NCBI GenBank assembly: GCA_963749535.1
Contig: CAVVNF010000021.1
Location: 3,413-67,412 of the forward strand
DNA length: 64,000 nt
From: an uncultured Thermoleophilia bacterium
GTDB taxonomy: Bacteria > Actinomycetota > Thermoleophilia > RBG-16-64-13
Reading direction: 5' to 3'
Positions 25,789-63,273 of this stretch are shown piece by piece. The position numbers and the translations under genes are program-made. The first letter of the stretch is position 1, and every line of letters begins with the position of its first letter. The notes beneath the pieces are model-generated. The model did not search any database and had not been told where the DNA came from. It saw nothing but the letters and a program-made list of their open reading frames with translations.

Positions 25789-25825
25789 CAGGCAATCGTA
25801 CAGGAAGCGCGGGACGCCGCAGCGT

Positions 25826-27490: not shown

Positions 27491-27504
27491 CTGGGTTCCA
27501 AGCC

Positions 27505-41453: not shown

Positions 41454-41947
41454 GATGTTCCTTCACTTTCCAATTGCCGGGTCTCCCTGAGCGGGCTCGG
41501 CCCCAGCGCCTTGACCGTGTCAACCATCTCCTGCACGCTCTCGACGAAGGTGGGGGCCATGGCGGCCGAAAGGTTCACCATCTTGAGCCGTTCGTCCCCG
41601 ACGCCGATCTCGGCGAGCATCTCGCGGATGCGGTCCGTGCGCTTGCGCGCGCGCAGGTTGCCCTCGAGGAAGTGGCAACCCCCTTCCAGGCAACCAGCCA
41701 CAAGAATCCCGTCGATGCCCTTCAGGAAAGCCTCCAGGATATGCTCCATCTCGATCTTGCCGGTGCACGGCGCGTGGATGATGCGAACGTTGGCCGGGTA
41801 CTGCATCCGCTTGGAGCCCGCAAGGTCCGCCGCGGCATACGCACAGTAGTTGCAGCAGAAGGCGATGATCTCGGGTTCCCAGTCGGCGCCGAGCGTCGCC
41901 GCGGTCGCGGCCGCTTGCATCATCTCGGGCATCACAGCCTCGCTCAT
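41450..41947 (-). CDS. mvhD: MvhD/FlpD-like [2Fe-2S] electron-transfer subunit
   Basis: Start placed at ATG 41947 (MSEAVMPEMM), forming an ATGA overlap with the hdrA stop. The track ORF extends to 42148. Motifs: IIAFCCNYCAYAAADLAG, IHAPCTGKIE and LVAGCLEGGCHFLEGN. Confidence 0.85.
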   Translation of the reverse strand: MSEAVMPEMMQAAATAATLGADWEPEIIAFCCNYCAYAAADLAGSKRMQYPANVRIIHAPCTGKIEMEHILEAFLKGIDGILVAGCLEGGCHFLEGNLRARKRTDRIREMLAEIGVGDERLKMVNLSAAMAPTFVESVQEMVDTVKALGPSPLRETRQLESEGTS

Positions 41948-44900
41948 AGCCGCGCTCCATCCACCAACAGCTCGTCCAGCATGGCGACCAGCGCCTCGTC
42001 TTCCTGGTGCTGCAGGGTGATCGTCCTGGCCGGGCAGGAGGCCGCGCAACTGCCGCAGCCCATGCACATCGCGCCCTGGATCTCGGCCTTCATAAGCTCG
42101 TTGATCATGGGAGCGCCGTATGGGCAGACCTTGACGCAGGTGGCGCACGCCACGCAGTTCTCCGGATCGACCTTGGCCACCTGTCCGGGGATCTCAAGGA
42201 ACGCCTTGGACAGGACCGTCGTGGCTCGTCCGACTGTAGCCTGGGCCTGGGCGATGGTCTCGTCCATGAACCGGGGCGAGTGGGCTAAGCCGCAGAGAAA
42301 CTCGCCCTCGTTGGCCAGATCCACCGGCCGGAGCTTGGGATGCGCCTCGAGGAAGAATCCGTCGGCGGTGAGGGCACTGCGCAGCAGTCCGGACAGCACC
42401 GGGTTGCCGGCGGCCGGAGCAATGCCGGTGGAGAGCACCAGCAGATCGGGCCGCAGCACCAACTCGCGGTTGCTCGACGCGTCGTGCACGGTCACCTGGA
42501 GCCGTCCGCCTTCCTCGACCACGATCGGGTCGCCCTTTTCGGGATGGCGCACGAACAAGATCCCTTCTTCTCGGGCCTTCTGGAAGAACAGCTCCCGGAA
42601 TCCGTACGTTCGGATGTCCCGCCCCAGTACCGCCACGTTGGCGTCGGGCACAAGGCGCTTGATCTCCAGCGCGTTCTTGACCGCTTCGGAGCAGCACACC
42701 CGGCTGCAATAGCCGTGCTCCTCGTTGCGGCTCTCCACGCACTGGATCATCACCACGGTGGGACTCTTCTTGCCTTGCAGCTCAGGCGGAAGATCGCCCC
42801 CGGCCAGCACGGCCTCCAGCTTGCTCTGGGTAGTCACGTGCGGGTTCTTGCCGTTGAGGTACAGGTCGGTGGAGCGCTCCTGGCCGCCCGTCGCGACAAT
42901 AACGACTCCGTGACTGATTGGCAGCTCGCTCCCGGCCACGTTGAGAACGCTCTTGAAGTTGCCGACGTGTCCGGTGATGCTCGCAGCGGTGGTGCTCAGA
43001 TAGACCTCGATGCCGGGATGGGCTTCGACCTTGTCCACCAATCGCTGAAGATACGCCTCAACGTCGGCACCCTCGAGCGTGGTGTGCACATCGCGAAGCA
43101 ATCCGCCCAGGGCGGGCTCCTTCTCCACCAAGTGCACGTCGAACCCTTGGTCGGCGATGCCCAGCGCCGCGGTCATGCCGGCCAGTCCGCCGCCCAGGAT
43201 GAGCGCTGAGGCCGTCACCGGCAGTCGCCCGGTCTGCAGGGCCCTCAGATGCCGCGCCCGTGCCACCGCCATAGCCATCAGGTCGACGGCCTTTTCGGTA
43301 GCGGCGACGGGGTCGTCCTTGTGGACCCAGGAACATTGGTCGCGGATATTGGTCATCGCGAACAAGTACTGGTTCAGCCCGCTCTCGCGCAGCGTCTCCT
43401 GGAAGAGGATCTCGTGGGTCCGCGGCGAGCAGGAGGCCACGACCAGCCGGTTGAGCCGGTGCTTCTCGATCATGTCCTTGATGTGCTGCTGGTTGGTGTC
43501 CGAGCAGGTGTACATGCTGGCTTCGGCGTGACGCACGTTGGGCATGAGGGACGCCCTCCGGGCCACTTCCTCCACGTCGATGACCGACGCGATGTTCTGG
43601 CCGCAGTGGCAGATGAACACGCCCACCCGCGGCGCTTCGTCGGTGGTATCGCGCTCCCAGGGGTATTCGTGCCGCTGGATCAGATTGCCGCGGGCTTGGG
43701 CCAGTTGGTCCATGGCGCACGCCGCGGCCGCCGACGCCTGGGCCACCGATTCGGGGATGTCCTTCGGCTCCTGGAATGCTCCGGCCACGTAAAGGCCCGG
43801 TTTGGACGTCGCCAGCGGAGCCAGCCGCTCGGTCTGGGCAAAGCCGAACTCGTTGAGCTCCAACCCCAGCCGTCCAGCGGTTTGCCGGACACTGGCGGGA
43901 ACCTGCATGCCCACGCTGAGCACCACCAGGTCGAACTCCTCCTGCCGTTCGATCCCCGCCTCGTCGAAGTAGCGTATGCGCGGGTTCTTAGTGCCGGGCA
44001 TCTCGACCACCCGCGAGGGGATGGCCCGGATGTACTTCACACCGTGCTCGTCGCGAGCGCGGTTCACGTAGCTATCGAACTCCTTGCCGAAGGCGCGCAC
44101 GTCCATGCAGAAGATGGATACTTCCAAATTCTGGCCACGCGCGTGCTCTAAGGCGACCATGGCCTCCTTGGTGGCGCTCATACAGCAGATGGACGAGCAA
44201 TATCCGTTGCCTCGGGCGGCGTCGCGGCTGCCGACGCATTGGATGAACGCGATGCGTTCTACCTCACCGCCGTCCGAAGGCCGCTGGACATGTCCGCCGG
44301 TGGGACCCGCGGCCGAGAGCATGCGCTCGAATTGGACGCTGGACAGCACGTTCGCGTAGCGCCCGTGGCCGAACTCCCCGCGCAGAGAACCCTGGAACTC
44401 CTCGAAGCCGGGAGTCAGGATCACACTGCCGGCATCGATCTCGATCTCCTCGGGTTGCTGGTCGTGACACACCGCGCCGGCCGTGCAGACCTTGACGCAC
44501 TGCATGCATTCACTGCAAAGTCCGCAAGCGAGACAACGCTTGGCCTCCGCGACGGCCTGATCCACGCTGTAGCCCAGGTCGATCTCGGTGAAGCCGTCCA
44601 CGCGCCCAGATGGGTCGGCTTGCGGCATCTTCACGCGCTCCTGCCGCGGGGCGTCGGGCGTGGGGTTCTTGGCCTGCTCCACCGGATTCTCGGCCTCCGC
44701 CGCGCCGGAAGTCGCTGCCAGCTTGGCCCCTCGTAGGTAGGCGTCGATGGCCTCGGCGGCCTTGTGACCGTGCGCCATTGCATCGACCATAGAGGCCGGT
44801 CCCAGCACCGCGTCGCCGCCTGCGAACAGACCCGGGACGCCGGTGGCGAGCGAATCTTGGTCGGCCACGATCCGCCCGCCGGGGCCGGTGGCCACGCCCA

Positions 44901-46530
44901 GCCCGGCTGAGTCGATTCCCTGGCCGATGGTAACGATCACCGTGTCAGCAACCAGAACGGCGGTCCGCAGATCGTCGAACTGGGGATTGAAACGCCCCTG
45001 CTCGTCGAACACGCTGGTGCAGGCCCGGAAGGACACTCCCGACACCTTGCGCCCGCTCGTCTCGATCCGCGTCGGCCCGAGGCTGTTGTGGAAGACGACT
45101 CCCTCCTCAAGCGCCTCGGCTGCCTCCCAGGAGTGGGCCGGCATCTCCGCGCGACTCTCGAGACACGCCAGATGTACCGAAGACACACCGGGCAGCCGGC
45201 GGGCGCAACGCGCGGCATCCATGGCGACGTCGCCGCCGCCGATAACCAAGACGGTGGACCCGAGAGCCGGTGTCTCACCACTGTTGACCCGGCGCAGGAA
45301 ATCGAGACCCTCCCAGACGCCCGTAGCCTCTTCGCCGGCGATGCCCAGTTTCCGGCTCACCCAGGCTCCCGGCGCTGCGAAGACAGCTTTGAACCCGGAC
45401 TCCAGGAGACCCGCCGGGTCGGCGACGCGCGTGCCCGTCTTGGCCTCCACGCCCAAGTCGAGGATGTACTGGATCTCCTTGTCCAAGACGTCCTTGGGCA
45501 GTCGGTAGCTGGGAATGCCGTATCGCAGCATGCCCCCCAGGTGCGGCTGAGCCTCGAACAAGGTCACGCCATAGCCCAACAGGGCCAGGTCGGAGGCCGC
45601 CGTCAGGCCGGCCGGGCCGCCGCCGATGACTGCGACCTTGGCATCCAACTTGACGGCGGCGGGCTTGGCCGGCGGATACTCGCTCGGATTCGACTCAATG
45701 TAGTCGGCGACGAACCGCTTGAGATCGCGCACAGACACGGCCTCGTCGATCTCGCCGCGATTGCAGCTATCTTCGCAAGGATGCTGGCAGACCCGTCCGC
45801 ACGCAGCCGGGAGCGGGCAGCGCTCACGGACCAGCTCGTAAGCCTCCTTGAACTTGGACGCGGCAATGAGAGCCACGTAGCCTTGAGCGTTGACGCCGGC
45901 GGGACAGGATGACTTGCACGGCGCGCGTCCCGCGGCCTTAGAGATACCGAAGACGTTCGGAATCGCCTGTGGGTAGGGGCGGAAGATCGCCTTCCGCGTG
46001 CCAAGCCGGCGGTCGAACTCGCTTGGCAGATCGACCGGGCAGGCATCGGTGCAATCACCGCATGCGTTGCATTTGGCCAGATCCACGTAGCGCGGGTTCT
46101 GGCGCAGCTTCACCTTGAAGTTGCCCGGCTCGCCCGAGATCCCCTGCACGTCGGCCAGCGTGATGATTTCGATGTTCTTGTTCCGCGCGCATTCCACCAG
46201 CTTGGGCGAGATGATGCACATTGCGCAGTCGCCGGTGGGGAAGGTCTTGTCCAGTTGTGCCATCCTCCCACCGATCGCGGGCGAGGAGTCCACCAGATAG
46301 ACTTTGAAACCGCTCTCGGCGAGGTCCAGGGATGCCTGAATGCCGGTGATGCCGGCTCCGCAGACGAGTACGGCGCCTACGGCCTCGGGGCCGTTGGCTC
46401 CATTCCCATTCGGTCCCTTCCCGTTGCCTCCGGTGTGGCCGCTCATGGCCGCACCTCGGCCTTGGTTCGTGCCTCGGCCCTGTTTCGTGGCTCGGCCCTG
46501 TTTCGTGGCTCGGCCCTGTTTCGTGCTCAC
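41944..46530 (-). CDS. hdrA: giant HdrA-like flavoprotein: HdrA module interrupted by a GltD/NfnB-like NAD(P)H oxidoreductase module, followed by a second complete HdrA module
   Basis: 1528-aa uninterrupted ORF. aa ~50-200: FAD fold (VLVCGAGITGIQASLDLAESG) plus a ferredoxin motif (CNACGDCTDACP). aa ~200-605: GltD-type N-terminal Fe-S region (RERCPLPAACGRVCQHPCEDSCNRG) and two dinucleotide folds (VAVIGGGPAGLTAASDL...GMLRYGIPSYRLPK; VLVIGGGDVAMDAAR; LFAGGDAV). aa ~660-950: rest of HdrA-1 (FIQCVGSRDAARGNGYCSSICC). aa ~965-1528: HdrA-2 (VFICHCGQNI, ILGGGLAGMTAALG, MIQCVESRNEEHGYCSRVCC, C-terminal 2x[4Fe-4S] CVACATCVKVCP / CMGCGSCAASCP). Confidence 0.9.
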   Translation of the reverse strand: MSTKQGRATKQGRATKQGRGTNQGRGAAMSGHTGGNGKGPNGNGANGPEAVGAVLVCGAGITGIQASLDLAESGFKVYLVDSSPAIGGRMAQLDKTFPTGDCAMCIISPKLVECARNKNIEIITLADVQGISGEPGNFKVKLRQNPRYVDLAKCNACGDCTDACPVDLPSEFDRRLGTRKAIFRPYPQAIPNVFGISKAAGRAPCKSSCPAGVNAQGYVALIAASKFKEAYELVRERCPLPAACGRVCQHPCEDSCNRGEIDEAVSVRDLKRFVADYIESNPSEYPPAKPAAVKLDAKVAVIGGGPAGLTAASDLALLGYGVTLFEAQPHLGGMLRYGIPSYRLPKDVLDKEIQYILDLGVEAKTGTRVADPAGLLESGFKAVFAAPGAWVSRKLGIAGEEATGVWEGLDFLRRVNSGETPALGSTVLVIGGGDVAMDAARCARRLPGVSSVHLACLESRAEMPAHSWEAAEALEEGVVFHNSLGPTRIETSGRKVSGVSFRACTSVFDEQGRFNPQFDDLRTAVLVADTVIVTIGQGIDSAGLGVATGPGGRIVADQDSLATGVPGLFAGGDAVLGPASMVDAMAHGHKAAEAIDAYLRGAKLAATSGAAEAENPVEQAKNPTPDAPRQERVKMPQADPSGRVDGFTEIDLGYSVDQAVAEAKRCLACGLCSECMQCVKVCTAGAVCHDQQPEEIEIDAGSVILTPGFEEFQGSLRGEFGHGRYANVLSSVQFERMLSAAGPTGGHVQRPSDGGEVERIAFIQCVGSRDAARGNGYCSSICCMSATKEAMVALEHARGQNLEVSIFCMDVRAFGKEFDSYVNRARDEHGVKYIRAIPSRVVEMPGTKNPRIRYFDEAGIERQEEFDLVVLSVGMQVPASVRQTAGRLGLELNEFGFAQTERLAPLATSKPGLYVAGAFQEPKDIPESVAQASAAAACAMDQLAQARGNLIQRHEYPWERDTTDEAPRVGVFICHCGQNIASVIDVEEVARRASLMPNVRHAEASMYTCSDTNQQHIKDMIEKHRLNRLVVASCSPRTHEILFQETLRESGLNQYLFAMTNIRDQCSWVHKDDPVAATEKAVDLMAMAVARARHLRALQTGRLPVTASALILGGGLAGMTAALGIADQGFDVHLVEKEPALGGLLRDVHTTLEGADVEAYLQRLVDKVEAHPGIEVYLSTTAASITGHVGNFKSVLNVAGSELPISHGVVIVATGGQERSTDLYLNGKNPHVTTQSKLEAVLAGGDLPPELQGKKSPTVVMIQCVESRNEEHGYCSRVCCSEAVKNALEIKRLVPDANVAVLGRDIRTYGFRELFFQKAREEGILFVRHPEKGDPIVVEEGGRLQVTVHDASSNRELVLRPDLLVLSTGIAPAAGNPVLSGLLRSALTADGFFLEAHPKLRPVDLANEGEFLCGLAHSPRFMDETIAQAQATVGRATTVLSKAFLEIPGQVAKVDPENCVACATCVKVCPYGAPMINELMKAEIQGAMCMGCGSCAASCPARTITLQHQEDEALVAMLDELLVDGARL
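46454..46525 (-). repeat. four tandem 18-bp repeats at the hdrB/hdrA junction, encoding (TKQGRA)-like hexapeptides if translated
   Basis: Plus-strand units: cctcggccttggttcgtg, cctcggccctgtttcgtg, gctcggccctgtttcgtg, gctcggccctgtttcgtg. They sit between the GTG at 46530 (GTGA overlap with the hdrB stop) and an alternative ATG at 46446. Confidence 0.9.
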
Positions 46531-47420
46531 TTTTCGTGCCTCCTGCTTCGTGTCTCAGGCCCGGAGAACCCTATTGATTCCAGAAGTTCTTGCGGCTCCA
46601 CGACAAGGCTTTCGAGCGACACCTCACTCGTTGAGCAACCCATGGCCAGGCCAAGCAATTGCGTGAAATAGAAGATCGGTAGGTTGTACCGGCGTCCGTA
46701 CTTGGCCTCGATGTCCTTCTGCCGCATATCCAAGTTGAGCTGGCAAAGCGGACAGGCGGTCGCGATGCAGCCGACCTCGGCGGCCTGCGCCATCGATAGG
46801 ATCCTGTCGCTCAGTTCCAGGACGATGCTCGAGTCGGCGATGGAGAAGCTCGCCCCGCAGCACTCGGTCTTGTGCGGCCAGTCCACGACCGTGGCTCCGG
46901 CGGTCTCGAGAAGCTGGTCCATCAGCGTGGGGTTCTCCGCGTCGTCGAACTGCGTGACTTCGGGCGGACGCGACAGCAGGCAGCCGTAGTAGCAGGCCAC
47001 CCTGAGCCCAGTTAGCGGGCGGCGGATGGCCGCGGCGACTCCCGGCCCCACGTCCCGGCCCAATATCTCCAACAGATGCCGGACCGGCGTCTGGCCGTCG
47101 TAATCTCCTCCGATCACCTGCGCGACCTTGATGCGCGTGCCGACGTCGCCGGCGATGTGGTGATTGGCCATCTTTAGGCGGCTGTAGCAGGCGGCGCATG
47201 CTACGGCGACAGTCCGCCCGCGAGCCGCACGCAAGTTTTGCGCCGGCAACGCGTCGGCTAGGAGAGGATCGCTGCTGTGGGCGGCAGTCGAACCGCAACA
47301 TATCCAGTCCTCTAGCTCGGGCAGCTCCAACCCCAACTTGGCTGCTACAGCCAGTGTCGAGCCATGGAAATCTTTGGCTGTGCCATCAAGCGAACAGCCC
47401 GGGAAGAAGGTGTAGCTCAA
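46527..47420 (-). CDS. hdrB: heterodisulfide reductase subunit B-like (two CCG domains)
   Basis: Start placed at TTG 47420, preceded by AAGGAGG and forming a TTGA overlap with the hdrC stop. The track ORF extends to 47765. Motifs: YTFFPGCSL, WICCGSTAAH, YYGCLL, KTECCGASFS and ACPLCQLN. Confidence 0.85.
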   Translation of the reverse strand: MSYTFFPGCSLDGTAKDFHGSTLAVAAKLGLELPELEDWICCGSTAAHSSDPLLADALPAQNLRAARGRTVAVACAACYSRLKMANHHIAGDVGTRIKVAQVIGGDYDGQTPVRHLLEILGRDVGPGVAAAIRRPLTGLRVACYYGCLLSRPPEVTQFDDAENPTLMDQLLETAGATVVDWPHKTECCGASFSIADSSIVLELSDRILSMAQAAEVGCIATACPLCQLNLDMRQKDIEAKYGRRYNLPIFYFTQLLGLAMGCSTSEVSLESLVVEPQELLESIGFSGPETRSRRHEK

Positions 47421-48001
47421 GGCTCGCCTCCTTGTGTTGCCCGGCGAAACAGTTTCTCGCGCTCTTTCCGCCCGCCGACCCGCGGGCCCAGCAACGGCAG
47501 TTTGCCCTTTGCCATCATCATGGGCGCCTTGCTGGCATCCTCGAAGAGCCGCCTGGTGCGCAGCTTGAATTCGGCCATCAACCCCAACTCGTACACCCGG
47601 CCGCGCTTGCGAACGCTTTTCAGAAATGCGTCGTTGAACACGGGAACGGCCGTGCCCGCCGCCGCCAGTCCCTCGCTCAGGCTGAGTGCCCGCAGCGCGT
47701 CGTTCATGGCGGGGATGTCCACATTCTGCGGGCAGCGCGTGATGCACGTCTGGCACGACGTGCACTCCCAGATAAAGCGACTGGTGAGCACCGACTCGCG
47801 CTGGTCCATCTGTACAAGCCGTACGACCTCATGTGGTTTGAGATCCCCGCGGTTGGCGACCGGACAGCCGCTGGAGCACTTCGAACATTGCAGGCAGCTC
47901 ATCGGCGAGGCGCCGCTCGAAACCTTCACCTCGCTGGCCAGGCTGCCGCCGATCTCTTCGATCTCTATCGTTACCTGGGTCACCGTCGTTGCCGCGGTCA
48001 T
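47417..48001 (-). CDS. hdrC: heterodisulfide reductase subunit C-like (2x[4Fe-4S])
   Basis: Start placed at ATG 48001 (MTAATTV), forming an ATGA overlap with the upstream stop. The track ORF extends to 48736. Motifs: CLQCSKCSSGCP and CTSCQTCITRCP. Confidence 0.85.
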   Translation of the reverse strand: MTAATTVTQVTIEIEEIGGSLASEVKVSSGASPMSCLQCSKCSSGCPVANRGDLKPHEVVRLVQMDQRESVLTSRFIWECTSCQTCITRCPQNVDIPAMNDALRALSLSEGLAAAGTAVPVFNDAFLKSVRKRGRVYELGLMAEFKLRTRRLFEDASKAPMMMAKGKLPLLGPRVGGRKEREKLFRRATQGGEP

Positions 48002-49407
48002 TTCTTCTCCTCCGACCCAGCCAGCACCGATAACTTGACGGCACTGACCTTGCGATAGACCTCCTGCGGGATCCGAAGCTCGCCGTCGACCCTCAGCAGG
48101 TCCTCCACCCGGATGCCGAATAGTCGCTCGTTCTCTTCCAAATAGCCGCGGATCAGCCGCCAGTCCTTGTCGTCCAGTGGCGAGAACACCCCACCATTGA
48201 GCTGGCGCTCGACCACCTTGTAATGCGGGTCGCGGATATAGATCGCGCCGCCGCTCGCCAGAGAGAACAGGTTGCTGCCCGGGTACGGAGCCGCCTGGGG
48301 AACCATGCGGCCGCATCCGTCGAACTCGATGCCGTTCAGGATGACGAACCCGCCGCCGGCCAGAGGATCCCCGGCCATGAACGACTCCGCCAGGAAGTCG
48401 AGACAGGTGCCGTTGATGACCACCCGTGGTCGTCCCACGGCGTTGATCAACGGCCGGCCCGCCCCGTTGCCCAAGACGAACACGTCGCCGCCCTTGGCGC
48501 CATACATGAAAGTCTGTCCCACGTCGCCGTAGATCACCAGCTTGCCGCGCTTGGCGATCTGGGCCACCTGGTCTTGGGCGTTGCCGTGAATGTGCAGCTC
48601 CAGGCCGTCCATGCCACTGGCGGTGTAATCGCCGTTGGAGCCGTAAAGATCGATGCGCACGCCGTCGGTTCTCGCGCCCAGACCCACTCCGTGGAAGCGT
48701 TGTCCCCGCAGCCGATAGACGACGAACCGCTTCCACCCCGCCCGGTACGCCTCACGCAGCAGGACCGCGTCGCAGTCGTCGCCCTCGGGCGGGAAGCCCT
48801 GGCTATCGAGGCACAGCAGCTCCTCGCCGGACCGCGGAGCCGCCACCCGATCACGGGTGTCCCAGGTGATCCGCCGCCAGAAACCCGCCGTAGGATCGCC
48901 AAAAAGCGGGGCGGCGTCGAAGAGTTGGTCGAGTGTCTCCTCGATCACCTGGATAACCGTCGCGCGGCGTTTGTCTCCGGTCGGGAAGGGCCGGTCGTGA
49001 AGCTTCGTTAGCGTCTCGATGGCCGCGGCGCACGATCGGGAGTTATCCGCCCCTGCCAGCACGGTCTGGCAGAACCGCCGCAGCCGGCCGGCCGGCCAAG
49101 AGGGCATTTCCCGGGCCTCGGCGATCAAAGCCTCCACCTCACCTCGGCGCAGCATTTCATGGATGCCGGCCGCGGTCAGAGCTTGGATGGGCGCACCGCC
49201 GGGCGGCGATCCCTCCTGGTGGCTCTCGATGCCCGCCGGGCCAGTCGTCAAGCCGGTCACCGGGTCAGCCGCCGAGTCAGCCGGTACGTCGCAGCGCACC
49301 GTGCCCGTGTCGCACTTGACCTCGTGGCCGAACTTGTTGGTGCACGAGAGCCGCATGTGCTCGACTGTCGCCGTCGCTCCCCGGCGCCACGGTGAAGATG
49401 AACGCAC
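47998..49407 (-). CDS. GXGXG-motif protein (glutamate synthase alpha-subunit C-terminal domain / FwdC / MgsB family) with ~200-aa N-terminal extension
   Basis: 469-aa ORF. It has a beta-helix repeat region: LRGQRFHGVGLGARTDGVRIDLYGSNGDYTASGMDGLELHIHGNAQDQVAQIAKRGKLVIYGDVGQTFMYGAKGGDVFVLGNGAGRPLINAVG. The 5' end overlaps the upstream amidotransferase ORF by ~130 nt in another frame, so this is either a fusion broken by a frameshift at ~49390 or a separate gene. Confidence 0.75.
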   Translation of the reverse strand: MRSSSPWRRGATATVEHMRLSCTNKFGHEVKCDTGTVRCDVPADSAADPVTGLTTGPAGIESHQEGSPPGGAPIQALTAAGIHEMLRRGEVEALIAEAREMPSWPAGRLRRFCQTVLAGADNSRSCAAAIETLTKLHDRPFPTGDKRRATVIQVIEETLDQLFDAAPLFGDPTAGFWRRITWDTRDRVAAPRSGEELLCLDSQGFPPEGDDCDAVLLREAYRAGWKRFVVYRLRGQRFHGVGLGARTDGVRIDLYGSNGDYTASGMDGLELHIHGNAQDQVAQIAKRGKLVIYGDVGQTFMYGAKGGDVFVLGNGAGRPLINAVGRPRVVINGTCLDFLAESFMAGDPLAGGGFVILNGIEFDGCGRMVPQAAPYPGSNLFSLASGGAIYIRDPHYKVVERQLNGGVFSPLDDKDWRLIRGYLEENERLFGIRVEDLLRVDGELRIPQEVYRKVSAVKLSVLAGSEEKK

Positions 49408-50683
49408 CCCCGTCTGTCGACGAGCCGCCTCGAGCGTTCCAGTATTTGTCGGCCACCGGACAGAAGCGCGGATCGTCCTCCGCCAGGCTCCGCAGAGTTG
49501 CGTCGATGGCCTGCTTTTCCGAGCAGATCAGGCCGATCTGGACTTCGCCGCTGTCCGAGAGCGCGAAGACCTGCGGGCGCAGCATGGCCGTGTCGGTGAT
49601 GCCCAGCAACTGGAACCGGTCGCCCTGGCTGCGGGCGATGATGAAGAACCAGGGACCATCCGGCGACGCATGTATGTGGGTCGCCTGGATCTCCCGGTAA
49701 ATGAGCTGCTTCTCCGGCGGCAGCTTGTCGAAATCCAGCTCGGTGGTGGGAGCCAGCGCCTCGATGATGTACTCGAGTCGATACTTGTAGACGCGGTCCC
49801 ATAGGTCGAAGAGCTGGACGGACACCTCCGTGTCCGTGAGGAACTGCTGCCGGATATTGCGCTGGCGCAAGTACTCGCAGACCGAGTGGTAGTTGGCGAA
49901 GTCGCCGTTGTGTACCAGCGCCTCGTTCATGCCGACGAACGGGTGAGCTCCTCCGGGGTGCCACACGCGGCCCTTGGTGGGATAGCGCTGATGGGCGATC
50001 CACACATGGGCCTTGAAATCCTCGAGTTGGTAGTACTCCACGTTTTGCTCGGCGTATCCCACCATCTTGAAGACCAGCAGATTTCTCGAATGAGAGAGCA
50101 CGAAGGCACGCTTTTCGCCCAGCGACGCGTAGTACTCATCGTTGAGCCGGTAAGAGTTGCGCCACACGAACTCGTCTTCCAGCGCGCGCGGCGCGAGATC
50201 TTGCAGCCCCGTCGCCTCGGCGAAGGTCTTCAGGACACTCGGCTTCACGCGCGCCACATAGCGGTGAACGTCTGGCGGACGGACCTCCAGCCCGGCGATG
50301 TCGCGATAGTCGTCGACGTGCGGCTGCCGCGTGGCCAGGGCGATGTCGAAGTTGGGCAGGATGAACTCCCGCTCCAGCTCGGCATGGCAGTCGGTATCGA
50401 GCAGGGCTATCTGGAGCAGATAGTGACTTGCGAGCATCTCGTCGGTGATGCCCAGTTGCTCGGGAACGAGGCCCGCCGCCGCGATGCCGCCGCCTTTGCC
50501 GTTGCCGCGGTTCTGCATCTGCTTCGACGGCTCGTAGATGAATCGCCCTTTCACCGGCACCGTGCAGGCAAAGCCGGTTACGCCGCACCCGCCTTCCTCT
50601 ACGCGCTCGGATCCGATCGGCTCTTCGGGACCCGAATAGACCTGCGACCGGCTGGCCAACAGACGTTCGGCGGATTCGCTCAC
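49277..50683 (-). CDS. class II (Ntn-type) glutamine amidotransferase-like protein (glutamate synthase domain-1 / MgsA family)
   Basis: Start placed at GTG 50683, forming a GTGA overlap with the upstream stop. The candidate nucleophile Cys sits in EEGGCGVTGFAC after a ~30-aa leader. Other motifs: NRGNGKGGGIAA and AHQRYPTKGRVWHPGGAHPF...ALVHNGDFANY. Confidence 0.75.
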   Translation of the reverse strand: MSESAERLLASRSQVYSGPEEPIGSERVEEGGCGVTGFACTVPVKGRFIYEPSKQMQNRGNGKGGGIAAAGLVPEQLGITDEMLASHYLLQIALLDTDCHAELEREFILPNFDIALATRQPHVDDYRDIAGLEVRPPDVHRYVARVKPSVLKTFAEATGLQDLAPRALEDEFVWRNSYRLNDEYYASLGEKRAFVLSHSRNLLVFKMVGYAEQNVEYYQLEDFKAHVWIAHQRYPTKGRVWHPGGAHPFVGMNEALVHNGDFANYHSVCEYLRQRNIRQQFLTDTEVSVQLFDLWDRVYKYRLEYIIEALAPTTELDFDKLPPEKQLIYREIQATHIHASPDGPWFFIIARSQGDRFQLLGITDTAMLRPQVFALSDSGEVQIGLICSEKQAIDATLRSLAEDDPRFCPVADKYWNARGGSSTDGGAFIFTVAPGSDGDSRAHAALVHQQVRPRGQVRHGHGALRRTG

Positions 50684-52381
50684 GGGGACACCTCCCCGGC
50701 CATGGCCGGCTCGTCGCTGAGGTAGCACAGCACGTCGCTACGCCCTCGAAGCTCGCGGATCGACGCCATCCCCAGGTGCCCGAGCACCACCAGCATCTCC
50801 TCGCGCCAGGCATTGTTGAGGTTGATCAGCCGCTGTGTGGCCCACTCGAGGCTCATCTGCATCATCATTTCGGGGTCGGTGGTAGCGATGCCGCGCGGGC
50901 AGCCCCGGCCGCTCTCGCAGCAGGCACAGCGCACGCAGCCCAAGGCCACCAGCTCGGCCGTGCCGATCACCACGCCGTCGGCGCCCAAGGCGATGGCCTT
51001 CAACGCGTCGTAGGCCGTGCGGATGACCGCCGGAGGCGATTAGCGTGATCTGATCCCGGATTCCTTCGGCGACCAGGAACTTGTGCACCTTGGGGATGGC
51101 GTACTCGATGGGCATGGCGATGTTCTTCTTGGCGATGTCTGGCGCCGCGCCGGTGCCGCCGTAGCTGCCGTCCAGATGGATGATGTGCGCTCCCGCGTAG
51201 TAGCTGCCCACCGCCACCATATCCACGTCGGTGGGCGTCGAGACCTTCACGCTCACCAGACAGTCAGGGTTCACTTCCTTGATCCAGTCCACGTGCTTCT
51301 TGTGGTCTTCCACGCTGTAGACGCTGTGGAAGGGGAACGGGCTGAACAAGGCGTTGCCGGCCACGGCCTCGCGCATGCGGGCGACCGGCGGCGTGTTCTT
51401 GTCGCCCAGCAGATGGCCGCCCAGGCCCGGCTTGGCGCCCTGCGCGTACTTGAACTCCACGATCCGCACGCGCTGGATGGTCTCCTCGCGCACACCGAAC
51501 AGGCCCGTGGCGACTTGCGTGATCACGTGGTCGTCGTAGGGCCTGAGGCGGTCGTGGTACCCGCCCTCTCCAGTGCAGGTGAAGCTGTTCCAGGCCGCAG
51601 CCGCGCGGGCCTTCGCCAGGATCGTGTGGATGCTCACCGAGCCGAAGCTCATCCCGCCCCCGTACATGGGGATGTCGAGATGGACTTGCGGCCGGCCGTC
51701 GCCGCGTCGGTTCAGATCCAGACCCGTGTCGATTTCGACGGCGCTGCCGGGCCGGCGGCGACTCGGCGGCGTGACCGAGGCTGCGCGTCGAGGCGGCGCG
51801 GCGACTACCCGGGCCGGAGCCTTCGATTTCGTCGCTTGGAACTTGAAGCGCAGCCTGTCGAACCCGCCGCCCGAAGCACCGTGCCGATATTCGAGATGCG
51901 GCGGCGCGGCATGCCCGGTGGCGGCCTGATGCCAGGTGGACAGGATCAGATCGCTCGACCAGCGCGGATCGCCCATGCAGTCGGCAGCGGGATTGCGCCG
52001 CATCGTGAGCGCCTTCTGAGGGCACTGCGCCACGCATGACTCGGCCGTCTCCGCGCACTCCGGGCCGATGCACAAATGGTCCTGGGGCCGAAGAGTGAAG
52101 GCATAGCCCTCGGGCTTGACATGCACTCCATGACGGCACACCTCCACGCACCGGCCACACGATGCGCACCGAGCCAGGCGGTCGATCTTGTACTTGCCCA
52201 AGACGTTGCGGTAGCGATCGGGGGCCGGGCGGATCTCCCGGTCGACCTGCCCCTGCGGCCATGCGCTCTGGCCCAGATGCGAAGCCGATGCCTGCGCAGG
52301 CTCGTCCCGGACTTCGGCCGAGACTTCGCCCGCAGCTTCGACCGGGACTTCGCCAGGAATGGTTGCCGCGTCCATCGTCAT
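50680..52381 (-). pseudogene. ferredoxin-fused glutamate synthase FMN-domain (domain-2) protein, catalytic-looking paralogue (one frameshift as assembled, ~51000)
   Basis: Start at ATG 52381, forming an ATGA overlap with the upstream stop. N-terminal Cys motifs: CASCGRCVEVC and CIGPECAETAESCVAQCP. TIM-barrel motifs: IPMYGGGMSFGSVS, VEFKYAQGAKPGLGGHLLG, HLDGSYGGTGAAP and LIASGG. After the shift, ORF 50680..51003 reads ALGADGVVIGTAELVALGC...CCESGRGCPRGIATTDPE. Confidence 0.8.
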
Positions 52382-53802
52382 GCACACACCTGACCCTGAG
52401 ACACGCGGGCCAGATCGCCGAATGCCTCCTTCTCGATATCCTCCATGAAGATGGCTCGTCCCACTTCGCCACGAAGGCGGCGGACTTCGCGGATGCCCAT
52501 GGCGCCCAGCACCTCGATGAGCTGGCTGTGCCACGCGCCCATGAGGTTGACCATGCGCTGGGCAGCGTAGGCAGAATCGCCCGAACCGATCTCGGCCGGG
52601 CAGGCGTTTTCGGAGTTGCATCGGCGGCCCTCACGGCACACCCGGCAGCCCAGAGCCACCAGAAGCGGTGTGTCCACGGCTACCAGGTCGGCCCCGCAGA
52701 TGATCGCCTTGGCCATGTGCTCGGCCAGGGCGATCCCGCCGGAGATGATCAGCGTGACCTCGTCGCGGAGCCCTTCTTTCACCAGTCGCCCGTGGACCTC
52801 GCGGAGGGCGTCCTTGATGTGCCGGCCGGGGCGCCCGTCATCCAGCAGCTCGCGCCCGTGCTGGTCGGCGCAGAGTTGAAAGACCTTGACGCCCGTCCGG
52901 CCCAACTCGACGATGCGGTCGGCTGTCGCGTGACACAGCACCAAGCGGACGGAGACCACCAACTGCTTGTGGGCGGCTTGGATCTCGCCGGCCAACTCCG
53001 CCGTATCCGAACCGTCAACCACTTGCACCATGCGCACGGCTTGGAGGAGGTCCTGGCTCCGTTCGATGTCGTCTTTGCCCAGCAACGGGCACCGCGAACG
53101 GCAGTAACTCTGGCGGCAGCGCGGACGCATCGGCTGCCGGCATCACGGCCACGGAGCTGAGCTTCATGGCCGCCACAGCGCGGGCAGCAGCCATGTGCTC
53201 GCTCTCAACCGGCCAGGCCGGCATGTCTAGGATCGCCGGAAGCTGGATCTCCAGCAGATGGGAGGGCGGAGTGAGCAGCTTGCCGTCGGGGGCGAACCTC
53301 AGGCGCATGGGCTTGGGGCCGATGTCCACCGAGGTGGAGATGTACTCGCGACCGTGGATTCCGTCGCGCGTGGGCCGGACGATCTCCGACATGTCCGTCC
53401 AGATGGAGTCGAAACCAGGGCCGTAGAACCGTCCGCGATAGCCCGCCCCGGAGACGGGGATCCTGCCGGCATCGGACTGGTTCCAGGTGGTGAGAATGAT
53501 GTCGGGCTTCCAGTACTCGTCGCCCATGTCCAGGAACTCCGGGTTGACCGAGATGCTCAGCAGTCCCTTGGTGCAACCCTGGACGCAGGACAGGCAGGCC
53601 TTGCATTCGTTGAGCGTCTGGACCGAGGCCAGCGGGTCGCGGTTGTAGGTCGCTTCGTTCCGGTAGACGTCATAGAGGCAACGCAGCTTGACGCAGTTGG
53701 TGCAGCGGGAGCAGTCCTCGCGCCAGTCGACGTTGCCGAACTTGCCCACCCGGCGGAACCGCGGGCCGTGGGAACGGCGTGAATGTGGTAGCGGTCGGGC
53801 AT
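52378..53802 (-). pseudogene. ferredoxin-fused glutamate synthase FMN-domain-like protein, degenerate paralogue (two frameshifts as assembled, ~53780 and ~53110)
   Basis: ATG 53802 (MPDRYHIH) matches the PDRY segment of the downstream paralogue. It then shifts to ORF 53015..54253 (RFRRVGKFGNVDWREDCSRCTNCVKLRCLYD...CKACLSCVQGC...IPVSGAGYRGRFYGPGFDSIWTDMSE). The C-terminal half is in 52378..53130 (LIISGGIALAEHMAKAIICGADLVAVDTPLLVALGC...ACPAEIGSGD). The GGTGA and KPGxGG motifs are not recognisable. Confidence 0.7.
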
Positions 53803-53814: not shown

Positions 53815-54677
53815 TTACGCCAGTCCGGCTGCCTCGATCACCTGGCCGGCAAGCGCTTCGCAGCCGCCGCTGAGGATGTGGATGCCGCGGACGCCCGGCA
53901 TCGTCTTGAGCTTGGCGGCTATCTCGGCTGCCATGGCCAGGCCCTCCTTGGCCGCGTCGGGGGCGCTGGCCAACCGGGCGACCACGGTTTCGTCGAGCGG
54001 TCCGTAGGTCTGCTGTTGCCGCAGGTGCTCGGCCTGCTCGACGCTGGTCAGGGGCAGCACGCTGGCGATGATGGCCGCCCGCTTGTCCAGTCCGGCCGCC
54101 CGAACCGAATCCATCCACCGAGTGAAGCCGGCAAGGTCGAACACCGGCTGCGTGAGCAGGAAGTCCGCCCCGGCCGCGATCTTCTTCTTGAGCCGGAGCA
54201 GGTTCAGCTCCATCGGCTGCTGATGGGGATGGGCCACCGCCCCGACCAGCCATCTCCGCGCGAGATCCAAACCCTTACCATCTGGGCTTGCGCGAGCTGG
54301 GTGGAGTCGATGTCGTTGACCCCGGCCGCCTGGGGACAGACCCCGAGAGACTGGTGATTGCCGCTGAGGCAGAGGATAGCGCCGATGCCCAGTGCCGCGG
54401 CCCCCAGAGCATCGCTCTCCAAGGCGATGCGGTTGCGGTCGCGGGTCACCATGGACAGAACCGCCTCGCGGCCTTCGCGGGCCAGGAGAGCCGCACACGC
54501 CAAGGCCGAACCGTGGATCTCGTCGGGGTTGTCCGCCACCACCACCGCGTCCAGGCTCGGCGACAGCGCGGCCGAGAGCTTCTTGACAGCCTCCGCGCCG
54601 CCGGTGCGCGGCGGCAGGCACTCGGCCGTTAGAACGAGTTTGCCGGAGGTCAATGCCTCGCCGAACTTAGTCTTCAT
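53815..54677 (-). pseudogene. metF: methylenetetrahydrofolate reductase, small acetogen-type MetF (one frameshift as assembled, ~54260)
   Basis: ATG 54677 (MKTKFGEALTSGKLVLTAECLPP...VVVADNP...LSMVTRDRNRIALESDALGAAALGIGAILCLSGNH) in ORF 54204..54785. It continues in ORF 53815..54621 (LVGAVAHPHQQPMELNLLRLKKKIAAGADFLLTQPVFDLAGF...). The start overlaps the upstream gene by 11 nt. Confidence 0.8.
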
Positions 54678-55272
54678 TGGCGTCATCGCTGGTATCCAGT
54701 TCTTGGTAAGGGTCCTCGGCCGCTTCGGGTACATCGATGTCGAAAGGAGTGGGGGCCAGGCCGTCCAGCGCCAGCAACACTGCATCCCGGATGGCCGCGA
54801 CCCGGGCGTCCCCGGCTTCGGCCGTGCAAACCGGCACGGATCTTCCTGCGCCCAGCGCCATGTCTTCGGTGGCAGTGCCAGGCAGGTGAAAGAGCATCAA
54901 ACGCTCCCCTCCAAGCCCAATCTCGTCGAGGATCGCCCGAAGATAGTCCACCCGGCGAGCGCATCGCATGCTGCCTTCCAGGTAGTGACAGTTGTCCTCC
55001 TGGCACGCGACCGCGCAGACCAATCGGGCGCCGGACTCAAATGCCTTCAGGACGTGCTCCGGCTGGATCCGCCCCGTGCAGGGCACCAGCACTTCCCGCA
55101 CCGAAAAGGGCCAATCGAACCTCGGGACGATCGGACGCGACCGATCACCGGAGTTCGGCGCCTCGCTCGGCCGCGCGCAATTCATGCAGACAAAGGCCGT
55201 CACGATCGTGGCGTCGGCGGCGGAGTCGGTCGGCTGCTCAACATCGGAAAGAATCGATGGAGGAGCCATCAA
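54667..55272 (-). CDS. divergent MvhD/FlpD-like protein (first gene of the operon)
   Basis: 201-aa ORF with VTAFVCMNCARP, VLVPCTGRIQPEHVLKAFESGARLVCAVACQEDNCHYLEGS and an acidic C-terminal tail. GAGGAAGGG lies upstream of the ATG at 55269. Confidence 0.7.
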   Translation of the reverse strand: MMAPPSILSDVEQPTDSAADATIVTAFVCMNCARPSEAPNSGDRSRPIVPRFDWPFSVREVLVPCTGRIQPEHVLKAFESGARLVCAVACQEDNCHYLEGSMRCARRVDYLRAILDEIGLGGERLMLFHLPGTATEDMALGAGRSVPVCTAEAGDARVAAIRDAVLLALDGLAPTPFDIDVPEAAEDPYQELDTSDDANED

Positions 55273-55919
55273 AGCCCGTGCCCTTCCTCAAAGACCCTCT
55301 TCAAGTTCACCCGGAATACTCGCGAAGCTGTCAAGAAAGCCAAGGACGTCGACGAACGTGAGGCGGACGAGCTTGCTCTGTTTCTCCTCGGCGGGGCGAA
55401 GGACGTCCTTCTTGCTCAGTTCTTCTCCTATCGGATGCTCTTCTCAGTCCGTGGACCGTTTAGAGTAGCAGCAGTTGCAACGGGGTGGTTTGTCCAAAAG
55501 GCCAGTATTTAGCTGGGAATAGTTGGACCTATGTATTGCCCGAGGAGTTCCGAAGAAAACCCGAGTTACGGAGCGGTGGGGACCGAGACTGACAGCGGCG
55601 ATGACCAAGAATGTCAGCTTCGCGCACCGCGCTCCGCCTCGTGGTGCAGGGCAGCGACGTCTACAACTATCCGAATCAATGGCCGACGAATGCTCACGAG
55701 CGCACTGTCAACAGCGGCGAGCGCCTGATCTACGCGGGAGGCTAGTATGATTCGCACCTTCTTGCGCCCGTTATCCCCGCGAAATGAGGCCAAGCCGACT
55801 GTAGCCCTCGAGCAAAGCAAGGAGGCCCGGGAACTCGCCGGGCTTCCTTGCCACCCGAACCCCCCAATGACTCTGCTTCGAAGGAGCTACTGGCGGATCG
55901 AACCTCTACCCCAATGCAC

Positions 55920-56860
55920 CTACCCCTCCCTAGTTCCCAAGGGGGGAAAGATCGCCTGGGGAGCGCCATATTGCTGCCCCCAGTCCAGCCAGGCGACGTC
56001 GGTGGCGCCGACGTTGTAGGTGAGCACCTTCCAGACCGCCGTTCCAGTGAAGAAGCCCCATCGCTTCATCACTAAAAGCACCGGCTTGCACGTCCTGAAG
56101 GTAGGGAGTCTTCGAGTAGTCGATGGGGGCGCCGCTCGGCTGAACCGTCTGGCCCAGCACGAAAGCAAAATCGTTCTCCACTTTGAAGGTGTCGATCACG
56201 AAGAGGACCGATTGGTTCAGCTCCTTTTCGACGGGGACCCGAAGCACATCCAGGATGGCCTTCCGTTCGGCCGAGCCGGACGCGGGCGTATGCAGACGCG
56301 GCTCGGGAGCCGGAGCCAGGGTCGTGGTGGTGGTCGAGGGAAGCGAGGAGGTGGTGGTCGAGGGAAGCGAGGAGGTGGTGGTGCTTTCGGTGTCGCTGGA
56401 GCTGGTGGAGGGGATGGTGACGGTGGTGGACACCTGCGGCCAAAGTGCTAGTGGAGGACTCGCTGGACGACAGTCGTCGACGAGGAGGCCGTCTTGCCAG
56501 AATCGTTGCCGCGCAGGCCGAAGTAAGCGCCCAGCCCCGGCTCCGGCCAGCACGATGACTGCAGCCACGACGATGCCTACGATCAGCCCGGTACGCCGGC
56601 GCGGCGGCGGTGCCTGCCAGCCTGGCGTGTATCCCGATGGGGCGGCGATGGAGGTGGCGCGTAGCTTATGCGGCGGTGGCGGGACTGAGCGGGATCCTGG
56701 CGGCTCAGAGGAAGCGGCCGGCCTGACTTGGGTCGCATCTAGTCCGGACTCCAGCCCGGCGGCTCCCCCCGTCCTCTGGACCTGGGGGGCAGGCGCCCCG
56801 CATTCTTTGCAGAATGCCGCGCCCTTCATCGATCGTCTTGCCACAACTGGAGCAAAACAT
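55920..56860 (-). pseudogene. double zinc-ribbon, single-pass membrane protein with Ser/Thr-rich linker (three or more frameshifts as assembled)
   Basis: N-terminus: MFCSSCGKTIDEG (frame of 56705..56917) then AAFCKECGAPAP (frame of 55930..56901). TM helix: LIVGIVVAAVIVLAGAGAG. Linker: TTTSSLPSTTTSSLPSTTTTT. The C-terminal domain finishes in the frame of 55920..56168 (TAVWKVLTYNVGATDVAWLDWGQQYGAPQAIF). Confidence 0.55.
56331..56378 (-). repeat. perfect 24-bp tandem duplication inside the Ser/Thr linker
   Basis: tggtcgagggaagcgaggaggtgg occurs twice back to back (56331-56354 and 56355-56378), encoding the repeated SSLPSTTT. Confidence 0.85.
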
Positions 56861-57127
56861 CGGATCCCCTCCCCTTTCGCAGCCCTGGGCTCCGCATCCA
56901 TCGATCATCCAACGCAAGCGTAAGACATGCGCGCGCTGTAGTCCATACCTTGCGGTGCCCGCGTGCGCGGCAGATACCCGCTGGGATGGCGATTACTGAG
57001 GCCACCATTAGCGGCGTCTTGCTCGCCGACGCGCGAAGGTGCAACTTTGACGGCTTGTCGCCCAGTTCCGCTCTCCGATGTGGCCGGCAGCTTGGTTACG
57101 CTCGCGCCTCGACCCGACACGCGCTCG

Positions 57128-63046: not shown

Positions 63047-63273
63047 TGGACCCCTCCGAGCGTGGTACCATCGAAAGTATTATATTGTCGTGAGTATAAC
63101 GATTCGGCTTGAAGACAGCAAGTTCATGCGGACGCGGTCAACGGAAGTCTTGAGGCAGCCGAGCGAGCAAACCGCAATCGCGGAGCGACGGGAGTCTCTT
63201 ACGTTATGATTGCGTGTAGCGAGGTAGTTCGGCAGCTGCGCCGCCAAGGCCGGCCGGAGGAGGTTGTATCAGG

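Follow-up and report, generated by a model that had tools for sequence, protein, structure and literature searches.

What are three glutamate synthase-like genes doing in the middle of an operon of Hdr, MvhD and MetFV electron-transfer proteins? The question is raised by a 64,000-nucleotide stretch of DNA from an uncultured Thermoleophilia bacterium (contig CAVVNF010000021.1, positions 3,413 to 67,412; hereafter the window), whose positions 47998–53802 encode, on the minus strand, two adjacent paralogues (A and B) and a glutaminase fused to a GXGXG beta-helix protein (CD). The reading that we favour, and hold to be probable, is that A, B and CD are subunits of an ammonium-assimilating glutamine:2-oxoglutarate amidotransferase (GOGAT, or glutamate synthase) fed with electrons through the MvhD/MetFV/Hdr chain of iron-sulfur (Fe-S) and flavin proteins. 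Domain content, catalytic residues, natural fusions and nitrogen-assimilation neighbourhoods support A-B-CD as a genuine glutamine-dependent glutamate synthase; the MvhD/MetFV chain is proposed as its electron supply because the association is near-universal and conserved in order, and because HdrCB and a GltD-containing HdrA are present here. A first-pass annotation, made from the nucleotide sequence, had described the region as a split glutamate synthase-like set, and the domain assignments bear this out (Glu_synthase in B, GATase_6 and GXGXG in CD).

Three overlapping genes encode A, B and CD

Six-frame translation shows that the whole of 47998–53802 is coding and holds three minus-strand genes, and that the four open reading frames (ORFs) listed in the first-pass annotation are fragments that shift frame without intervening stops. 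The insertions and deletions (indels) were placed by comparison with a scaffold from an independent metagenome (L001), which is 94.6% identical over 14.2 kb. Relative to this scaffold paralogue A has 1 nt missing at about position 53764 and 1 nt extra at about 53082, B has 1 extra nt at about 51024, and metF contains a small cluster of indels at 54251–54283. In CD, 1 extra nt at about 49363 produces the apparent split between an amidotransferase and a GXGXG protein.

The nearest 120 homologues of a concatenated amidotransferase and GXGXG query are all single proteins of 812–908 amino acids (aa) in which GATase_6 and GXGXG are both present, the best of them being 97% identical and 894 aa long. 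As all 120 are fused, the amidotransferase and the 'enlarged GXGXG protein' of the first-pass annotation belong to a single protein, and the former division into four genes is an artefact of the indels. The impression that the GXGXG protein is about twice the usual size has the same source; the additional length comes from three parts, namely the amidotransferase C terminus, a linker, and a helical domain of ∼120–150 aa that is conserved. The ATG start codon of B overlaps the stop codon of A (ATGA), and the GTG start codon of CD overlaps the stop codon of B (GTGA), a pattern expected of a translationally coupled operon.

Catalytic residues of B and CD

Paralogue B matches the Glu_synthase model PF01645 at 2.9e-90 and is alignable with residues 879–1172 of the A. 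brasilense glutamate synthase (GltS) alpha chain (1EA0/2VDC). It keeps AQGAKPGLGGHLLG, ARMRE, DGSYGGTGAAP, SGGIRT and a Cys motif ending in CP. The alignment shows that AQGAKPG with its Gln and Lys, ARMRE with its Arg, DGxxGGTGA and GG-x-R/K-T are all retained, and cysteines of B align with C1102, C1108 and C1113. The N-terminal domains of A and of B each contain eight cysteines and are ferredoxin-like, with a weak match to Fer4_9. The arrangement previously described, in which two adjacent minus-strand paralogues each carry a cysteine-rich ferredoxin-like N terminus followed by a Glu_synthase barrel, is thus confirmed, as are the motifs ascribed to B.

CD begins with a leader of 32 residues, after which EEGGCGVTGF places Cys33 where the first-pass annotation had put a candidate nucleophile (∼30 residues in). 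That annotation took the leader to imply either processing or inactivity, and the evidence now favours the former. The leader and Cys33 are invariant in 25 close homologues and conserved in most distant ones, and the CD motifs IAHQRYPTKG, VHNGDF and TDTEV align with the GlmS glutamine ligands R73/T76, N98-G99 and D123. Because the leader and EEGGCGV are conserved and the Gln-binding residues are kept, removal of a propeptide appears more likely than inactivity. Propeptides preceding the catalytic Cys are known in bacterial GltB and B. subtilis PurF, and the leader of CD is thus not a sign of inactivity. One sub-branch of CD has Gly in place of Cys33, and there are degenerate catalytic positions elsewhere in its sequences.

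The C-terminal third of CD is the GXGXG beta-helix. The helical domain that precedes it also occurs in stand-alone versions of 350–460 aa in other lineages. An AlphaFold model of CD was poor, with a predicted local distance difference test (pLDDT) score of 57.5, and was not used; a Foldseek search with it gave no significant match. In two natural fusions of ∼3000 aa (P0159 and P0188), Glu_synthase and GXGXG modules share one chain with a GlcD-like, FAD-linked oxidase.

Paralogue A is a conserved iron-sulfur protein

Paralogue A is homologous to B over its whole length, and its match to PF01645 (3.7e-16) is confined to the C-terminal half of the model. Missing from A are a block of 44 residues (K-x-AQGAKPG ... 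SPFPFHSVYS), which contains the 2-oxoglutarate loop and the following SPxPxHxxYS segment, and the DGxYGGTGA motif. Retained are the eight N-terminal cysteines (CxxCxxCxxxxC and CxxCxxCxxxC), the four cysteines of the barrel cluster site (C-x2-C...C...CP), GGIALAEHMAKAIICGAD, and a motif of the type that binds the phosphate of flavin mononucleotide (FMN), GGIAxAEHxxKxIICGAD. An A-specific motif, PVSGAGYxGxF..GFDxxWTDMSEIVRPTRDGIHGREYIST, is invariant from Actinomycetota to Planctomycetota and Desulfobacterota, and WTDMSEIVRPTRDGIHGREYIST (A residues ∼133–155) is invariant across phyla and missing from B and from classical GltS. Arg, Asp, His and Glu are abundant in the latter segment, which might be a binding site.

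The earlier proposal of a catalytic and scaffold pair, with most catalytic motifs lost from A, therefore holds in part. B is of the catalytic type and A is a non-catalytic paralogue without the 2-oxoglutarate loop and DGxYGGTGA; however, A is not a mere degenerate scaffold, as it keeps its 8+4 cysteines and the FMN-phosphate-type motif, has an invariant motif of its own, and is found fused to B. A role as a plain scaffold was rejected given the invariant motifs and cluster ligands. Homologues of A number in the thousands and are mostly labelled 'hypothetical', 'ferredoxin' or 'glutamate synthase-related', the labels that A, B and CD genes now carry.

A and B form a single ORF in at least 7 of 82 loci, and A-B fusions of ∼980 aa make up at least 120 protein clusters from several phyla; in one protein of 2204 aa (P0254), A, B, the glutaminase and GXGXG are all fused. 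An AF2 model of a natural A-B fusion has a pLDDT of 74 (85–96 in the A barrel) and a pTM of 0.75. Its best matches in the PDB are GltS alpha chains, with ∼940 aligned columns and a query-normalised TM-score of 0.47–0.50 (Foldseek). This is more columns than B alone could give. A is probably the counterpart of the GltS central domain, which lines the ammonia tunnel, since it precedes B just as the central domain precedes the FMN domain in GltS and since the modelled fusion matches GltS. The central domain itself has been viewed as a possibly duplicated, truncated barrel (PMC8097209).

Gene neighbourhoods across phyla

Species-representative genomes were scanned for CD; 567 of the first 600 pattern matches were confirmed and 80 loci were kept. 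These span Acidobacteriota/Bryobacterales, Actinomycetota, Myxococcota, Chloroflexota, Planctomycetota, Desulfobacterota, Latescibacterota and Syntrophorhabdia with gene order conserved, and in all 82 related loci, from at least eight phyla, A, B and CD occur together in that order. Searches by tblastn with the ten operon proteins revealed three layouts: that of the window, mvhD-metV-metF-A-B-CD without Hdr, and mvhD-A-B-CD-metV-metF. At 54 loci the sequence extends 5.5 kb or more upstream of CD; all 54 have both A and B, 51 have MvhD (FlpD), 49 have MetF or MetV, and 21 have Hdr. The reported placement of metF in the same operon is thereby upheld and extended to a strongly conserved association. 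Hdr-bearing loci, about half of the loci, carry HdrCB and an HdrA-GltD fusion, as in the window.

The recurrent further neighbours are amt, glnK (PII), glnA and carAB. When the neighbours at 20 loci were clustered, the only conserved families were FlpD, MetV, MetF, GlnA, Amt and PII. A link to ammonium assimilation (glnA, amt, glnK) is found at 19 of the 80 loci, the closest genome relatives included; in the latter (L005, L006, L010 and L017) the operon is immediately preceded by amt-glnK(-amt-glnK), which has the same orientation, and in two Hdr-less loci (L049 and L052) the order is amt-glnK-glnA-[mvhD-metV-metF-A-B-CD]. The neighbouring glutamine synthetase (GS) scores 648 bits with TIGR00653 (cutoff 429) and is a genuine GlnA of type I; its scores with type III GS-like models are below cutoff. 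The hosts are mostly anaerobes (Desulfobacterota, Dehalococcoidia, Phycisphaerae, Syntrophorhabdia).

These neighbourhoods also bear on the alternative raised in the first-pass annotation, that the set is an MgsABC-like N-methylglutamate synthase or some other enzyme that transfers amines in the metabolism of methylated amines. The three domain types are indeed shared, and metF and corrinoid genes do lie in the window. However, the gene order and fusion differ, with the glutaminase (GATase) domain fused to GXGXG; A and B both carry ferredoxin domains and Cys cluster motifs in an operon full of electron carriers; and the conserved neighbours are those just listed, in mostly anaerobic hosts. The only GS-like neighbour is GlnA of type I rather than the GmaS type. 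Gene order, Fe-S content and neighbours are the grounds on which we rejected the MgsABC reading, which we consider extremely unlikely.

The operon of the window and its MetF

The operon runs on the minus strand from 55272 to 40782 and reads, 5′ to 3′, mvhD-metF-A-B-CD-hdrC-hdrB-hdrL-mvhD-metV (Table 1). The 3′ end of the first mvhD copy overlaps the start of metF by 20 nt. HdrL consists of HdrA modules with a GltD/NfnB-like NAD(P)-binding insert at residues ∼200–700; its listed ORF begins with a TKQGRA-type repeat that is probably upstream sequence and not protein. In classical NADPH-GOGAT the GltD module delivers electrons to GltB, and the electron input of classical enzymes is through either GltD or ferredoxin (PMC8097209).

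The MetF of the operon is a clear member of the methylenetetrahydrofolate reductase (MTHFR) family. Alignment with the E. coli MetF structure in the PDB shows that the equivalent of E28 is kept and that of D120 is Asn, as it also is in the two relatives L001 and L002. We take D120 of the E. coli enzyme to be important in folate binding and reduction, and E28 to be its general-acid Glu. The Asp equivalent to D120 is kept in 30/30 Hdr-less operons and in only 9/28 Hdr-linked ones, the other 19 having N, A, F, Y, L, T or R at this position; the E28 equivalent is present in 28/28 alignable sequences from Hdr-less operons, and it is Ala in three Hdr-linked MetFs. The frequent loss of this Asp in Hdr-linked operons suggests that where Hdr is present folate chemistry is no longer needed and MetF acts mainly as a flavin relay. 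Hdr-less MetF may react with methyl- or methylene-tetrahydrofolate (THF).

An alternative takes the latter suggestion further. MetFV would oxidise 5-methyl-THF, and the electrons would travel by way of MvhD and then the Fe-S domains of both paralogues until they reached the FMN of B, for a net reaction of methyl-THF + 2-oxoglutarate + glutamine to methylene-THF + 2 glutamate, so that glutamate synthesis would be a high-potential sink for the thermodynamically hard oxidation of methyl-THF. The midpoint potential of methylene-/methyl-THF is about −200 mV and that of 2-oxoglutarate + NH4+/glutamate is more positive, values that make this reaction feasible. The minimal module MvhD-MetV-MetF-A-B-CD, found in about half of the loci, has no NAD(P)H-binding protein; its MetF keeps both residues; and the GlcD-like oxidase fusions described above suggest that the core takes electrons from substrate dehydrogenases. 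Corrinoid methyltransferase genes in the window would supply methyl-THF; the first-pass annotation was right that they are present, but they are 27–45 kb away from the operon. Substitution of the D120-equivalent Asp in the window and most Hdr-linked operons argues against folate chemistry here, and nitrogen flux would be far below catabolic one-carbon flux, so that this could hardly be the main route of methyl oxidation. On balance we regard this alternative as unlikely.

A model for electron supply

Under the reading that we prefer, a glutamate synthase fed through the Fe-S and flavin chain, the four GltS alpha domain types would lie on separate polypeptides in permuted order: a central-like A, the FMN/synthase subunit B, and the glutaminase and beta-helix of CD. 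Cleavage of the 32-residue leader of CD would leave Cys33 as the N-terminal nucleophile. Glutamine would be hydrolysed by CD, the ammonia would go to 2-oxoglutarate over the FMN of B, and the resulting 2-iminoglutarate would then be reduced to give glutamate. This FMN would be supplied by a long Fe-S wire and not by a separate GltD subunit. On B the wire would include a four-Cys site in the barrel and a pair of ferredoxin-type clusters; a further three cluster sites would be contributed by A, which would be paired with B at the place of the GltS central domain, and MvhD, MetV and the MetF-like flavoprotein of the operon would be further parts of it. The donor in the present organism would most likely be NAD(P)H, entering through the GltD/NfnB-like module of HdrL, because the operon has genes for HdrC and HdrB together with one for an HdrA that contains its own NAD(P)H module. 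We infer the formation of a complex with MvhD/MetFV/Hdr, the identity of the donor, any bifurcation and the central-domain role of A. A precedent for a split GOGAT with exchangeable electron input is the FrhB-like 'subunit 4' of a proposed F420-dependent enzyme (PMC3087415).

The exergonic reduction of 2-iminoglutarate may also push a second electron pair onto ferredoxin by flavin-based electron bifurcation. A more speculative extension, which we put forward tentatively and which may well be wrong, is a bifurcating or energy-coupled supercomplex in which the large drop in free energy on glutamine-dependent amination of 2-oxoglutarate would be used to reduce ferredoxin with NAD(P)H via HdrL/HdrBC/MvhD/MetFV, and would pull the oxidation of methyl-THF where Hdr is absent; A would then represent a surviving intermediate of the duplication from which the GltS central domain arose, with Fe-S clusters and perhaps FMN.

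Several observations weigh against the favoured reading or parts of it. The cluster motif of B, C-x2-C-x2-C-x5-C-P, has four cysteines and is invariant across phyla, whereas the [3Fe-4S] motif of GltS, C-x5-C-x4-C-P, has three; the motif of B suggests a [4Fe-4S] cluster on the barrel. The residue equivalent to Gln978 of the Synechocystis enzyme is always His in B, again across phyla. Checking the active site by alignment, as had been recommended, thus shows that the Gln, Lys and Arg ligands are kept and that these two features differ. For A, the match to the central-domain Pfam model PF04898 is weak (E ∼1e-3), the sequence being nearer to the FMN domain, and the superposition of the A-B fusion on GltS has a high root-mean-square deviation (13–17 Å). 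It is also unusual for a single bifurcating complex to have two high-potential acceptors, which here would be methylene-THF and 2-iminoglutarate. In the window itself amt, glnK and glnA are not found beside the operon. No paper describing a cluster of MetFV/Hdr and glutamate synthase was found by full-text search, which is not proof of absence from the literature; the papers found mention glutamate synthase only as a GltD/NfnB similarity or in generic nitrogen assimilation.

At L027 and L036, both of which have ample flanks, A-B-CD has no MetFV, MvhD or Hdr neighbour, and these loci too count against the proposed coupling. The coupling is not obligatory, as these loci show, and the trio can be self-contained. 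Thiolase and beta-CASP genes flank one of them and ubiD/ubiX/ubiA the other. Such loci are what would be expected if an ordinary ferredoxin-dependent archaeal-type GOGAT merely shared an operon with an independent Moorella-type Hdr-MvhD-MetFV reductase, the two being physically and electronically uncoupled. The ferredoxin-like domains of A and B could draw from free ferredoxin, and hdrCBA-mvhD-metVF by itself is known as a complex in Moorella thermoacetica (cited in PMC9012536 and PMC10553843). Against this reading count the position of A-B-CD between metF and hdrC, or straight after mvhD-metV-metF, in at least eight phyla, the MetF/MetV adjacency in 49 of 54 loci, the overlapping start and stop codons in the window, and the placement of the entire block downstream of amt-glnK(-glnA); moreover, an Hdr-linked MetF that often has no residue for folate reduction is hard to square with an autonomous MTHFR. 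We think uncoupled neighbours unlikely.

Glutamate synthase is the main entry of nitrogen into biomass, and the donors described so far are NAD(P)H via GltD, ferredoxin and, as proposed, F420H2. The present set points to a fourth electron-input arrangement, which occurs in several hundred genome records from soil, peat, sediment and subsurface anaerobes. If the coupling is true, it would reveal how anaerobes short of energy meet the cost of nitrogen assimilation, and the Hdr-MetFV complexes, a long-standing puzzle, would gain a concrete candidate for their partner reaction; annotation would change as well, as 'metF/hdr' clusters of this type are now read as Wood-Ljungdahl genes.

Interrupted reading frames

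A further point against the model is that genes of the operon are interrupted by indels in the present assembly. The indels are unevenly distributed: five to six frame-breaking indels fall in the 6.5 kb of metF-CD, none falls in the adjoining 7.3 kb of hdrC-metV, and none of those in metF-CD sits in a homopolymer. This pattern could mean that metF, A, B and CD are pseudogenes in the present strain and that the frameshifts are the real inactivating lesions that the first-pass annotation had allowed for. Yet unrelated genes in the window are also broken. The lgt gene is spread over three frames (Pfam LGT positions 1–116, 115–181 and 186–239), a Peripla_BP_6 solute-binding gene is split over two, and two URO-D genes lack their N-terminal halves; frame-breaking indels throughout the window point to an error-prone, probably long-read assembly. 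The ratio of nonsynonymous to synonymous polymorphism (pN/pS) against L001 is 0.09–0.17 in the interrupted genes and 0.04–0.20 in the uninterrupted hdr, mvhD and metV, and there are almost no internal stops in the interrupted genes after frame repair. A, B and CD are all unbroken in relatives, paralogue A of L001 carries a frameshift of its own at a different place, and in several related loci from long-read metagenome-assembled genomes the tblastn matches to HdrL are likewise fragmented across frames. The frameshifts are most probably assembly errors, and we consider it very unlikely that the genes are pseudogenes.

Features of the window

The coordinates of the operon genes and of other features are collected in Table 1. 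No riboswitch or other RNA was detected with Rfam in the whole window (gathering thresholds) or in the region upstream of the operon (E up to 1), and matches to a sigma-54 promoter pattern are no commoner than chance. The LytR_cpsA_psr, MprF-type and SLH genes elsewhere in the window suggest a Gram-positive-type envelope; the loci closest to the operon come from metagenome-assembled genomes with Actinomycetota or Bryobacterales labels.

Table 1. Genes and other features of the 64,000-nt window.
Feature	Coordinates	Strand	Size and evidence
mvhD/flpD copy 1, first operon gene	54667–55272	minus	201 aa; ORF, L002 ortholog PF02662 FlpD, tblastn synteny
metF-like flavoprotein (MTHFR family)	53815–54686	minus	∼287 aa; PF02219 in orthologs; interrupted by indels
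Paralogue A	52378–53802	minus	474 aa, frame corrected; 2x[4Fe-4S]-type N-terminal domain and degenerate GltS-type barrel
Paralogue B	50680–52381	minus	∼566 aa, frame corrected; 2x[4Fe-4S]-type N-terminal domain and FMN/synthase barrel
CD, single fused gene	47998–50683	minus	∼894 aa; 32-aa leader, class-II (N-terminal nucleophile, Ntn) glutaminase, linker, helical domain, GXGXG beta-helix
Cys33 codon of CD, candidate N-terminal nucleophile once propeptide is gone	50585–50587	minus	Sequence and homologue conservation
GXGXG beta-helix match within CD	48196–48675	minus	PF01493, 3.9e-12; weak FwdC similarity
hdrC-like	47417–48001	minus	194 aa; HdrC models below cutoffs, synteny
hdrB-like, CCG-domain	46527–47420	minus	∼297 aa, start approximate; PF02754 in ortholog; TIGR03288 171 bits, below cutoff
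HdrL-type	41944–46530	minus	1528 aa, frame unbroken; PRK12771 525 bits against cutoff 516; HdrA2 model 936 bits
mvhD/flpD copy 2	41450–41947	minus	PF02662, 4.5e-48; start approximate
metV (DUF5981, MTHFR C-terminal-type zinc/Fe-S protein), last operon gene	40782–41453	minus	PF12225, 1.5e-37; start approximate
Gap upstream of operon	55273–55930		∼650 nt; no Rfam match
ORF adjacent to gap	55933–56901	minus	323 aa, Ser/Thr/Pro-rich; no Pfam match
Corrinoid methyl-transfer genes	3092–5950, 17198–21079		
DUF1638-PAS-GGDEF protein	3092–4933		
URO-D/MtaA-like methyltransferases	4923–5699, 17198–17605		Both shortened by frame changes
B12-binding protein, fragment	5525–5950	minus	
B12-binding protein	18540–19259	minus	
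B12-binding protein	20348–21079	plus	
Peripla_BP_6 solute-binding gene	15628–16996		Split over two frames
lgt	29265–30291		Spread over three frames
Envelope genes	23333–24892, 25781–28533, 61802–63079		LytR_cpsA_psr, MprF-type lysyl-phosphatidylglycerol synthase pieces, SLH-domain solute-binding protein

Comparison with known systems

MgsABC combines glutaminase-like, GXGXG and FMN-barrel domain types, as does the set described here, in a redox-neutral reaction, and is encoded by three separate genes, mgsA-mgsB-mgsC, beside gmaS and mgdABCD. The present set differs in its gene order, in its Fe-S domains and electron carriers, and in its type I glnA, amt and glnK neighbours. An FwdC/FmdC identity of the GXGXG protein was considered and rejected, the similarity being weak (TIGR03122, 23.9 bits against a cutoff of 130) and fwd genes not being in the operon.

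The Hdr part of the operon has two precedents. In HdrL of Desulfobacterium autotrophicum, which is large and HdrA-like, a GltD-like part binds NAD(P)H, and mvhD comes next (PMC2702500), so that the HdrA/GltD fusion with mvhD next to it is common to both; however, the HdrL loci of that organism adjoin dsr and other genes, and a link to GltB-like proteins or MetFV is not described there. With the HdrABC-MvhD-MetFV complex of Moorella thermoacetica (cited in PMC9012536 and PMC10553843) the window shares hdrC, hdrB, an hdrA-type gene, mvhD, metV and metF in one operon. It differs in the three GltS-like genes between metF and hdrC, in its two mvhD copies, in the large HdrL form of HdrA with a GltD/NfnB-like insertion, in the Asn at the D120 equivalent of MetF, and in the nitrogen-assimilation neighbourhoods of its relatives.

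Archaeal-type split GOGAT has separate ORFs for the glutaminase, the FMN and ferredoxin subunit and the GXGXG protein, and in its proposed F420-dependent form an FrhB-like fourth subunit. Split domains, an FMN subunit with a ferredoxin-like domain and an exchangeable electron input are all features in common (PMC3087415, PMC8097209). The set described here has in addition paralogue A and a glutaminase fused to GXGXG through a helical domain, and its candidates for electron input are MvhD/MetFV/Hdr rather than FrhB; the two are set apart on these features.

With the GltS alpha chain (GltB/GlsF; 1EA0, 1OFD, 7MFM) there is agreement in the four domain types, in the glutaminase Cys that follows a propeptide, in the C-terminal GXGXG beta-helix, in the Lys and Gln of AQGAKPG and the Arg of ARxR in the FMN barrel, and in the Cys cluster motif ending in CP, and it is on GltS alpha chains that the A-B fusion model superposes best. 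The differences are that three polypeptides are used, in the order central-like, FMN, glutaminase and beta-helix; that both barrel subunits carry an additional 2x[4Fe-4S]-type domain at the N terminus; that a four-Cys motif replaces the three-Cys [3Fe-4S] motif and His replaces Gln978; that FMN-phosphate-type and Cys motifs persist in A, the probable counterpart of the central domain; and that in place of a separate GltD a GltD-like module lies inside HdrA. The chemistry is that of a known enzyme family; what is new is the subunit architecture (the Fe-S paralogue A, the glutaminase-GXGXG fusion and the four-Cys motif), the permuted order, the conserved association with MvhD/MetFV(/Hdr), and the systematic loss of a catalytic residue from Hdr-linked MetF.

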